A stretch of DNA of 22,737 nucleotides from the IMG/VR virus record IMGVR_UViG_3300024433_002526; one strand, 5' to 3'. The notes beneath the pieces were generated by a model. The model had not been told where the DNA came from and did no database searches. It was given only the letters and a program-made list of their open reading frames with translations. The position numbers and the translations under genes were made by a program. The DNA comes from a virus. Positions 3,241 to 3,961 of this stretch are shown in pieces; the first letter of the stretch is position 1, and the number at the start of each line of letters is the position of its first letter.

Positions 3241-3609
3241 TTATGAACGGCGTCCGAGGGCCGCCAGCTTCGACAACCCCCGGTCCACCTTCGGCGCGAC
3301 AGGAGCCTTCTCAGAAACAAGCTCCTGTGCAATCTTCTTCTCGACCGGTGACTCGTTCGCCTTGGCACTGAGCGCCAGCGCGTACATAAGGTTCCTGTGC
3401 GCATCGAGTGCTTTGAGACAGTGCTCAGGGAACTGGTTCTCCAAGAGCAACAGTCTCAAATGGTCCTCGGTCTGGGCAGTATCCAGCTTCGACCGGAACG
3501 CCACCACGCCACGCAGAGCTTCCCGCAGATGCGTGGCGATCGCCTTGATGTCAGACCCCAGCAGGGGCTGTTTGTTTCGCTGCCTCTTGTCTCTCGACCT
3601 CTTTGACAC
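3241..3609 (-). CDS. Hypothetical protein (122 aa), basic N-terminus
   Basis: GTG 3609 is preceded by AAGGGGA with a 5-nt spacer. In the 59-nt overlap with the upstream gene, this frame has the higher G/C third-position bias. The protein is alpha-helical in character ('HLRLLLLENQFPEHCLKALDAHRNLMYALALSA'). Confidence 0.6.
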   Translation of the reverse strand: MSKRSRDKRQRNKQPLLGSDIKAIATHLREALRGVVAFRSKLDTAQTEDHLRLLLLENQFPEHCLKALDAHRNLMYALALSAKANESPVEKKIAQELVSEKAPVAPKVDRGLSKLAALGRRS

Positions 3610-3961
3610 TGCCGTCCCCTTTGGTCATCTCGGGAACACCGTAGTTCCCTTTTTGCCGATCATGCAGCTCGGCCTTCTTCGAGCCGTTCCAGTTGTGCAT
3701 CTGCGAGTAGTACCCGACTATGCGGGTCATGTGCGACATGATGCGCGGTTGCCGCTTGCCAGTCAACACAGCCTGCAGATCGTCCCAGCTGTGCTCGCCG
3801 ATCGCAGAGATGGACACCGCGTAGTGGCCTGGCTGCCACGACCCATGTCCATCATGCGAGATCAGTACTACGTCATCAGTTGAGTTCACTCCCTGCCTGA
3901 CACCCCTCCACGTGAGGTGCGCGTGCTCCTGTACACGTCTGTAGAATTCACGCCCGTCCAT
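3551..3961 (-). CDS. Small protein (136 aa) with NrdD-type glycyl-radical C-terminal motif
   Basis: I place the start at internal ATG 3961, preceded by GAGAGGA about 8 nt upstream. The tracked N-terminal extension to 4084 lies inside the upstream nuclease gene. The motif 'TRIVGYYSQMHNWNGSKKAELHDRQKG' resembles the class III ribonucleotide reductase glycyl-radical region (R-[IV]-x-G-Y ... [WF]-N-x-G-K-x-x-E ... R). No Cys-rich zinc site and no catalytic barrel are present. Confidence 0.45.
   Translation of the reverse strand: MDGREFYRRVQEHAHLTWRGVRQGVNSTDDVVLISHDGHGSWQPGHYAVSISAIGEHSWDDLQAVLTGKRQPRIMSHMTRIVGYYSQMHNWNGSKKAELHDRQKGNYGVPEMTKGDGSVKEVERQEAAKQTAPAGV

Follow-up and report, generated by a model that had tools for sequence, protein, structure and literature searches.

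A phage-encoded mini-protein with an NrdD-type glycyl-radical loop as a candidate trans-acting subunit of class III ribonucleotide reductase

Introduction

Why does a phage encode the glycyl-radical loop of class III (anaerobic) ribonucleotide reductase (RNR) on a small protein of its own, with neither the reductase gene nrdD nor the activase gene nrdG found beside it? The question is raised by a mini-protein gene of 136 amino acids (aa) within the IMG/VR virus record IMGVR_UViG_3300024433_002526, of which we analyzed a stretch of 22,737 nucleotides (nt), in the following called the window. From the letters alone, the original prediction had interpreted the gene as a possible autonomous radical domain for class III RNR, i.e., as a counterpart of GrcA/YfiD, which replaces the oxygen-cleaved end of pyruvate formate-lyase (PFL), or alternatively as a remnant of a split nrdD.

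Class III RNR has so far been treated as a single catalytic polypeptide with its glycyl radical in cis. A review from June 2026 lists spare-part proteins for formate lyases only and leaves their existence elsewhere undetermined (PMC13450708). Here, we place the mini-protein in a large family and compare its genomic neighbors with NrdDs that do or do not retain a radical glycine. Based on these sequence comparisons, we propose with a probability of roughly 0.55 that the mini-protein serves class III RNR as a glycyl-radical subunit acting in trans, i.e., as one part of a two-component enzyme.

Results

The mini-protein carries the radical loop of one NrdD clade

The gene and its protein comprise the following features.

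3551..3961, minus strand: mini-protein gene, whole with stop codon, 136 aa (open reading frame and translation; start backed by the family alignment)
3961..3959 and 3553..3551, minus strand: ATG start codon and stop codon of the mini-protein (listing of open reading frames)
3970..3975, minus strand: Shine-Dalgarno-like AGAGGA, 8 nt 5' of the ATG (plus strand tcctct; read from the sequence)
3746..3961, minus strand: N-terminal alpha/beta domain, residues 1-72, family-specific, presumed to serve in docking or activase recognition
3641..3745, minus strand: NrdD-type glycyl-radical loop, residues 73-107 (Pfam NRDD and TIGR02487 matches, near-invariant columns)
3713..3715, minus strand: codon of Gly83, the predicted radical site (plus strand ccc, i.e., GGG; column G in 164/166 sequences)
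3554..3640, minus strand: C-terminal tail, residues 108-136, non-conserved and predicted to be disordered (predicted local distance difference test, pLDDT, <50; columns mostly gaps in the family)

Residues 78-105 of the mini-protein read MTRIVGYYSQMHNWNGSKKAELHDRQKG, and residues 80-102 therein (RIVGYYSQMHNWNGSKKAELHDR) fit the NrdD motif R-[IV]-x-G-Y ... [WF]-N-x-[GS]-K-x-x-E ... R. Pfam's NRDD profile (PF13597) matches with an E-value of 4.9e-6 (25.9 bits, cut-off 26.2), aligning residues 71-104 to profile positions 531-561 of 562, and the NrdD profile TIGR02487 with 2.9e-6 (26.1 bits, cut-off 326.35), aligning residues 75-104 to positions 551-580 of 581. That is, the mini-protein falls below both NrdD family cut-offs and covers only the extreme C-terminus of the profiles. 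When the full-length NrdD of another phage (L040) is compared by phmmer, the E-value is 8.8e-9. The three matches exceed chance and confirm the originally predicted NrdD-type motif. A Pfam scan at E<=10 returned NRDD only, i.e., no PFL-type Gly_radical match (PF01228).

The L040 NrdD (1584 aa; 367 bits against Pfam NRDD), which contains an ATP-cone and two insertions of intein type, has the C-terminus ...CNDC..CSICNSTNVEGMTRIVGYYSRVKNWNKSKLGELKDRQKGDYGV. It closes with the same motif flavor as the mini-protein, ...TRIVGYYSRVKNWNKSKLGELKDRQKGDYGV, including the terminal DRQKGxYxV. The respective NrdD clade is common in Planctomycetota, Elusimicrobia and Omnitrophota as well as in their viruses. 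Upstream of the loop, no similarity between the N-terminal domain and NrdD was found (hhalign probability 2.7%). The mini-protein contains no Cys at all, and the family consensus is likewise Cys-free, such that the Cys4 zinc site that usually precedes the motif is absent, as had been noted before. Judged by these alignments, the radical loop of the mini-proteins is that of a single NrdD clade, with the Zn ribbon swapped for an unrelated domain.

An AlphaFold2 model based on the family alignment folds residues 1-70 confidently into a small alpha/beta domain (pLDDT 82-93). The loop is modeled as a beta-hairpin whose two strands, E76-81 and E84-87, are connected by a turn that contains Gly83; a helix (93-103) and the disordered tail follow.

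Regarding the gene itself, a 136-aa open reading frame (ORF) with its own Shine-Dalgarno sequence is present as stated by the original prediction. An alternative GTG start at 4084 would yield a 177-aa version. We prefer the ATG since homologues share the same Met together with the conserved MDGREFY; M1 is kept as the start in 150/166 aligned family sequences. An identical mini-protein was called on the Logan contig L085.

The mini-protein belongs to a large two-domain family

A word-indexed search returned 17 small homologues. The subsequent profile search against 1.84 billion representatives (clustered at 50% identity) resulted in 859 matches at E<=1e-3. Of these, 568 reach E<=1e-10, and the top 150 are all 92-225 aa long. 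The family architecture consists of an N-terminal alpha/beta domain of about 70 aa followed by TRIVGYYS..NWNxSK..E..DR..G.Y. For the N-terminal domain, relatives outside the family were not detectable.

Within the alignment of 166 family sequences, the loop positions are nearly invariant, i.e., R80 is found in 165 sequences, G83 in 164, Y84 in 166, W91 in 156, N92 in 160, S94 in 164, K95 in 161, E98 in 161, R102 in 166, G105 in 163 and Y107 in 165. In the N-terminal part, W59 (159) and R70 (152) stand out. The window protein has the family-invariant W59, R70, R80, G83, Y84, S94, R102, G105 and Y107 and matches the family hidden Markov model (HMM) over its full length, including the N-terminal domain, with 170.9 bits (E=5.9e-51), a value that has to be read with the window protein itself being part of the underlying alignment; independent members reach E=6e-84. 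Only two of the 166 members, P0133 and P0164, lack the Gly (RIVSYF and RIMDYW, respectively) and keep the remaining loop. These two are perhaps paralogues that are inactive or have a regulatory role.

The family is represented in uncultured phages as well as in anaerobes, among them Kuenenia, Brocadia and Scalindua (many genomes and metagenome-assembled genomes, MAGs). Members are annotated as 'hypothetical protein', e.g., WP_070066661.1 from Ca. Brocadia sapporoensis or Q1PZP4 (KsCSTR_06960) from the 4.4-Mb genome of Kuenenia stuttgartiensis, and some members of 106-111 aa are misnamed 'anaerobic ribonucleoside-triphosphate reductase'. No entry for the family exists in Pfam, NCBIfam or PHROGs. 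In cultured phages, a tblastn search of 50,697 phage records with the mini-protein and a second family member (L106) did not find the family. Ca. Kuenenia hertensis YC6 encodes two diverged mini-protein paralogues (L118, SOET01000002; L159, SOET01000020), neither of them near nrdD or nrdG.

NrdDs encoded near family members lack the radical glycine

Among 223 family loci (2.5 Mb), an NrdD is encoded within 10 kb in 10 loci from 4 lineages, and the NrdD's own Gly is absent in all of them (10/10). On the other hand, the mini-protein occurs in 0/58 loci whose NrdD retains its own Gly. At the level of loci, which are not independent of each other, this corresponds to a Fisher p-value of 5e-5.

The clearest truncation is seen in a phage with an 81.6-kb contig (L025/L086), where a 97-aa family member is located 5 kb upstream of a 1625-aa NrdD. 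This NrdD terminates at ...CSKC..CENCNSGDVEGIEYYQ*, i.e., precisely where the L040 NrdD proceeds with MTRIVGYYS, and its stop is followed by a clean Shine-Dalgarno sequence and an unrelated aminoacyl-tRNA synthetase (aaRS)-like gene. The same truncation recurs in the homologues P0166 and P0167 (82% and 61% identity) and is therefore not an assembly error. We considered a downstream exon that continues the NrdD and rejected it given the Shine-Dalgarno sequence and the aaRS-like gene after the stop as well as the lack of any further Gly loop within 10 kb. Trans-splicing by a split intein was rejected, too, since the truncated NrdDs end only few residues from the loop position without an N-terminal intein half (IntN); on the mini-protein side, the end of the N-terminal domain shows no HN-[CST] junction. 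A 78-aa ORF of L025 that might have been a phage NrdG turned out to be a fragment of a radical S-adenosylmethionine (SAM) protein of the Cfr/RlmN type. Directly upstream of the mini-protein gene, this AT-rich phage encodes a proteasome-subunit-like protein (L086 646-1392; PF00227, E=1.7e-9).

In an 81-kb contig of a bacterial MAG (L106), nrdG, nrdD and the gene of the 101-aa mini-protein MCP4482802.1 form an operon with 73 nt between the last two. The NrdD of 783 aa ends with ...CGVCGSQNVPGVSWIEEIKG*. A viral-looking lineage (L091-L095) encodes the mini-protein 1.2-3.3 kb upstream of NrdDs with a degenerate pseudo-loop, e.g., NIYGVEFGKFEEIHEWDNK. In one of its contigs (L091 8132-11686), which also carries the mini-protein gene, nrdD is interrupted by the free-standing ORF of a DUF559-type endonuclease (9015-9989) and is left in parts of 305 aa and 561 aa. 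Finally, in a high-G+C contig of 107 kb (L337), the mini-protein gene is found 3.5 kb from nrdG and an nrdD whose product lacks the Gly and has the tail ...GSVARSLDYQTAEALWDVSHMSSLEDR. An apparent split of nrdD in L163 was rejected as it is an ordinary NrdD with a frameshift.

NrdG accompanies family members in L006, L106 and L337. For L006, a phage relative with a 54% identical mini-protein, the NrdG2 equivalog is found 8 kb away with 148.6 bits (cut-off 131). Beside this, two jumbo-phage contigs of about 208 kb encode an uncharacterized 281-aa radical-SAM protein 2.4 kb from the mini-protein gene (L003 12783-13628, minus strand; the same gene in L011). Its similarity to NrdG2 is only weak (E=5.7e-5), and it may represent a diverged activase.

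Gly-less NrdDs are widespread and otherwise conserved

NrdDs without a radical glycine are common. The RxxGY loop is absent in 66/120 closest database relatives of the L025 NrdD and in 44/120 relatives of a Planctomycetota (Scalindua-type) NrdD, the latter including Scalindua and several Brocadiales labels. To these belong NrdDs with a full-length tail in which the Gly and its R/Y neighbors are replaced (P0206, P0214, P0320-P0332), e.g., GIRRLVSHDKVNNWDRTK. We defined invariant columns by at least 97% identity among 96 intact NrdDs. Of the resulting 205 columns, 168 are retained by 90% or more of the 87 Gly-less NrdDs compared, and the losses concentrate on the second CxxC and the Gly loop. 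Given that their conserved core is otherwise kept, the Gly-less NrdDs look functional.

A complete Scalindua chromosome (JALDRA010000001.1; L176 10001-13183) retains nrdR, a Gly-less nrdD and nrdG as an intact operon. That is, the activase is preserved without a substrate in cis, which implies that its substrate is provided in trans.

Short phage-encoded loops point to independent splits

We also scanned IMG/VR with an NrdD alignment, which yielded 80 loci. None of the about 52 NrdDs with their own loop has a credible free Gly-loop ORF nearby. Of the 25 NrdDs without loop, at least 20 have, no more than 10 kb away, an ORF of 46-127 aa with R-[IV]-x-G-Y...N-x-[GS]-K. These viral free Gly-loop ORFs often directly adjoin nrdD, sometimes with an HNH gene in between. 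Supplying the Gly loop in trans thus appears to be a recurrent solution.

Several forms can be distinguished. Phage NrdDs of the 'ICPKHGY..CPIC' type (L209, L215, L218-L226, L230, L238; IMG/VR) end before the Gly loop and are immediately followed by an ORF of 66-87 aa of the form MLSEFEKAVLKNN...SRVMGYYRPMSEYNVGKRQEHADR. Those ORFs behind phage NrdDs that read MLSEFEKAVLKNN...SRVMGYYRP span 75-87 aa. An HNH endonuclease gene separates nrdD from the Gly-loop ORF in L215 and L238; for L238, only a 60-aa version was seen that stops before the Gly loop. The L209-type phage pairs look like 'genes in pieces' made by homing endonucleases. Even shorter free Gly-loop pieces of 46-53 aa are found in L180, L185 and L189. 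In a MAG (GCA_004196295.1; L088 5242-10222), nrdR and nrdD are followed by the genes of a 61-aa ferredoxin, a 71-aa ORF, a thioredoxin-like protein and nrdG. In this operon, the 735-aa NrdD breaks off behind the first Zn-ribbon CxxC, and the 71-aa ORF provides the second CxxC and the Gly loop, i.e., this class III RNR is split inside the Zn ribbon. The same ending is observed in 40/120 related NrdDs.

According to hhalign, the short phage pieces do not share the N-terminal domain of the mini-protein family, and the similarity covers 32 loop columns only. A tblastn search with a 77-aa phage Gly-loop piece against the 50,697 phage records did not find a family member either. As they usually adjoin nrdD, in some cases separated by an HNH endonuclease gene, the short pieces look like independent and more recent splits. 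The mini-protein family is the elaborated form, which is usually unlinked to nrdD and common to phages and cells.

The phage genome around the mini-protein gene

The window covers part of the genome of an uncultured tailed phage; it has about 59% G+C and all genes on the minus strand. In gene order, it encodes:

Minus strand, part 1: DNA polymerase A, an SSB-like 610-aa protein, a RecA-like protein, a 5'-3' exonuclease
Minus strand, part 2: an Mre11-like phosphoesterase, a Rad50/SbcC-like ATPase, the terminase large subunit with a LAGLIDADG segment
Minus strand, part 3: a T4-type portal, HU, a holin-like protein, a PDDEXK nuclease, the mini-protein
Minus strand, part 4: two small ORFs, then a large protein with a Major-Vault-Protein (MVP) shoulder domain that is truncated at the window edge

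The mini-protein gene overlaps the 3' end of the upstream PDDEXK nuclease gene by 14 nt. Its own non-conserved 3' tail (3551..3609) shares 59 nt with the next ORF (3241..3609, GTG start), and the real start of this downstream gene may sit further inside. Just downstream of this gene cluster, the MVP-shoulder (PF11978) protein spans 2..2419 (minus strand) and is complete, with 895 aa, in L085 (9567-12254); such a domain is unusual for a phage protein. The terminase large subunit (8119..11136, minus strand, 1005 aa; PHROG 19299, E=6e-25) contains LAGLIDADG_3 at residues 360-405, i.e., this packaging ATPase probably harbors an intein that carries a homing endonuclease.

No close cultured phage is known from a megablast search with the whole window, which gave no match, and the portal is only 22-24% identical to those of T4-like myoviruses. 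Near-identical fragments were found in other samples (L007, L008, L085, L258), with the mini-protein gene being 96-99% conserved across independent samples. A syntenic relative (L015) lies on a 145-kb contig. The source phage is thus probably large, with a genome of probably about 145 kb, most of which is unseen. Exact-protein look-ups for the rest of the phage returned contigs of 11-15 kb only, and a scan seeded with polA resulted in a contig that begins inside polA. Walking outward from L015 by one step added no more than about 5 kb. In agreement with the original prediction, neither nrdD nor nrdG was found in the window by Pfam scans of the called genes and NrdD/NrdG HMMs on all six frames.

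Discussion

A proposed two-component class III ribonucleotide reductase

From the motif, the family, its conservation and the genomic pairing with Gly-less NrdDs, we infer how activation, docking and catalysis would proceed if the mini-protein is a trans-acting radical subunit. An NrdG-type radical-SAM activase (SAM plus a reduced [4Fe-4S] cluster) would take the C-alpha hydrogen from Gly83. The family-specific N-terminal domain would dock the mini-protein on an NrdD core without its own radical glycine, i.e., on an enzyme that, like the partner NrdDs of the relatives, stops right after the Zn ribbon or bears a degenerate pseudo-loop. The loop would then enter the barrel at the usual place of the cis glycyl-radical domain and generate the thiyl radical of the finger-loop cysteine, such that nucleotide reduction could start.

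Oxygen destroys glycyl-radical proteins by cleaving them at the Gly. A separate radical subunit of 12-15 kDa would therefore confine oxygen damage to a cheap and replaceable part. If encoded by a phage, the small subunit would keep the class III RNR charged during infection, where the partner NrdD could be phage-encoded elsewhere or be the host's. More generally, class III RNR might widely exist as a two-component enzyme, in which a Gly-less NrdD is served in trans by a dedicated, disposable and NrdG-activated radical subunit of about 100-140 aa that phages carry as an auxiliary gene; for this generalization we see the chances as evenly balanced. With the small subunit, phages would keep a Gly-less NrdD charged, be it their own or that of the host, e.g., in oxygen-fluctuating sediments or in anammox bacteria.

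Several observations weigh against the proposed two-component enzyme. The radical-loop part of the AlphaFold2 model reaches only moderate confidence (pLDDT about 70). The counts of paired loci represent a biased sample as the loci come from motif- or homology-seeded searches, and about 210/223 family loci have no NrdD within 10 kb, i.e., linkage is exceptional. For the phage of the window, there is neither an NrdD nor an NrdG in the about 29 kb known (window plus L085, L258 and L341). Furthermore, NrdDs from Brocadia and Jettenia MAGs retain their own Gly loop, and Ca. Brocadia sapporoensis nevertheless has a family member. An obligate partnership cannot cover every case. The mini-protein may in addition rescue oxygen-cleaved intact NrdDs, as done by GrcA for PFL.

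Alternative explanations

This leads to the reading closest to the original prediction, namely a spare part only. Here, the mini-protein would be activated by the host's NrdG, replace the C-terminal fragment that an otherwise complete NrdD of host or phage loses when oxygen cleaves it at the glycyl radical, and sustain micro-oxic deoxynucleoside triphosphate (dNTP) synthesis. Its architecture parallels that of GrcA and of T4 Y06I, both small stand-alone proteins with the radical loop of their target (PMC13450708). The L025 NrdD, which naturally stops shortly ahead of the Gly position, resembles an oxygen-cleaved enzyme, and the Brocadia case fits as well. Most family loci are unlinked to nrdD, and so is grcA from pflB. 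Nevertheless, the neighboring NrdD is Gly-less wherever there is one, and none of the 58 loci with an intact NrdD has a mini-protein nearby. Scalindua-type NrdDs cannot be activated in cis, still nrdG is kept, and the N-terminal domain is folded and conserved in contrast to the disordered N-terminus of GrcA. We thus consider repair as the sole function doubtful. As for the original prediction, an autonomous radical domain for class III RNR is plausible given a stand-alone protein with an NrdD-type loop and no Zn ribbon, while a GrcA-like restriction to repair is probably too narrow because the comparison points first to a partnership with truncated or degenerate Gly-less NrdDs.

Other roles can be imagined for a detached loop. 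It might be a decoy that titrates the host's NrdG or blocks the barrel of the host's NrdD and in this way shuts down the host's anaerobic dNTP synthesis. Such a stand-alone substrate mimic would likewise need the conserved R-I-V-G-Y loop, and no NrdD was seen in the phage fragment. The family, however, sits in cellular chromosomes, including those of Kuenenia stuttgartiensis (4.4 Mb) and Brocadia, an inhibitor would make no sense inside the nrdG-nrdD-mini-protein operon of L106, and phages generally need more rather than fewer dNTPs, which makes a decoy very improbable. We regard it as equally hard to believe that the mini-protein, once charged by an NrdG-like activase, delivers its radical to an enzyme other than RNR. 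Most loci without a nearby NrdD and the radical-SAM gene of the jumbo-phage relatives (L003, L011) would be in line with such a carrier; against it, the loop is most similar to that of one NrdD clade, down to the terminal DRQKGxYxV, and NrdD and NrdG are the only recurrent linked partners. A functionless, decaying remnant of a split or disrupted nrdD, the second option of the original prediction, is effectively refuted. Split or fragmented phage nrdD genes are known (PMC3653736), and we observed a frameshifted NrdD ourselves (L163). Yet the family forms 568 diverged clusters with one two-domain architecture and near-invariant key residues, among them the Gly in 164/166 sequences, its N-terminal domain does not derive from NrdD, and the gene in question has a proper start with Shine-Dalgarno sequence and is 96-99% conserved in independent samples.

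Implications

If the mini-protein is a trans-acting radical subunit, it would define a new RNR subclass and be the first autonomous glycyl-radical protein outside the PFL system, a finding that would surprise RNR specialists. It would also explain dead-looking NrdDs in anammox bacteria and other anaerobes, which lack the radical glycine and are still accompanied by nrdG. The family is a concrete and abundant candidate for the open question of spare parts beyond formate lyases, and its natural gene sets, i.e., the nrdG-nrdD-mini-protein operon and the phage pairs, make this question testable. Furthermore, it suggests a cheap way of coping with oxygen damage, in which a 12-kDa subunit is sacrificed instead of a 90-kDa enzyme, and it would add a new type of auxiliary metabolic gene for the dNTP supply of phages in anoxic habitats. 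For annotation, it concerns proteins that are currently labeled as hypothetical or mistaken for a full anaerobic RNR.

Comparison with known systems

GrcA/YfiD from E. coli and Y06I from phage T4 are, like the mini-protein, small stand-alone carriers of the glycyl-radical loop of a large enzyme. Y06I provides a phage-encoded precedent for an autonomous glycyl radical cofactor of PFL (PMC13450708). Action in trans and activation by the radical-SAM activase of the target are presumed to be alike for the mini-protein. In contrast to GrcA, its loop is of NrdD type without PFL-type homology, i.e., it is not a member of the GrcA family, and its N-terminus of about 70 aa is folded and conserved rather than disordered. 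In addition, the enzymes linked to the mini-protein no longer have a Gly of their own, and this hints at an obligate subunit and not only a repair part.

With regard to NrdD, residues of about 73-107 are homologous to the last 30-35 or so NrdD residues, i.e., R-I-V-G-Y followed by W-N-x-[GS]-K-x-x-E-x-x-D-R. The mini-protein lacks the catalytic ten-stranded alpha/beta barrel with the finger-loop Cys, the ATP-cone and the Zn(Cys)4 ribbon; instead, an unrelated N-terminal domain precedes its loop. Full-text literature searches, with paywalled papers being outside our reach, yielded no description of a dedicated and widespread free radical subunit that serves class III RNR.

Split RNRs are documented, namely NrdJa/NrdJb from Pseudomonas aeruginosa, NrdA-a/NrdA-b from Aeromonas phage Aeh1 and the fragmented nrdD of phage phiAS4 (PMC9669993, PMC3653736). 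As in these systems, the function would be distributed over two polypeptides, with L106 and L025 combining a truncated NrdD and a separately encoded loop. The mini-protein differs in being more than a cut-off NrdD end since it has gained a domain of its own. It is usually unlinked to nrdD, belongs to a widespread family of phages and cellular anaerobes, and the NrdD tail of many of its partners is degenerate rather than cut. The other free-standing NrdD Gly-loop pieces follow the same logic of a loopless NrdD with a small loop ORF, but they come without the N-terminal domain of the mini-protein and usually adjoin nrdD.

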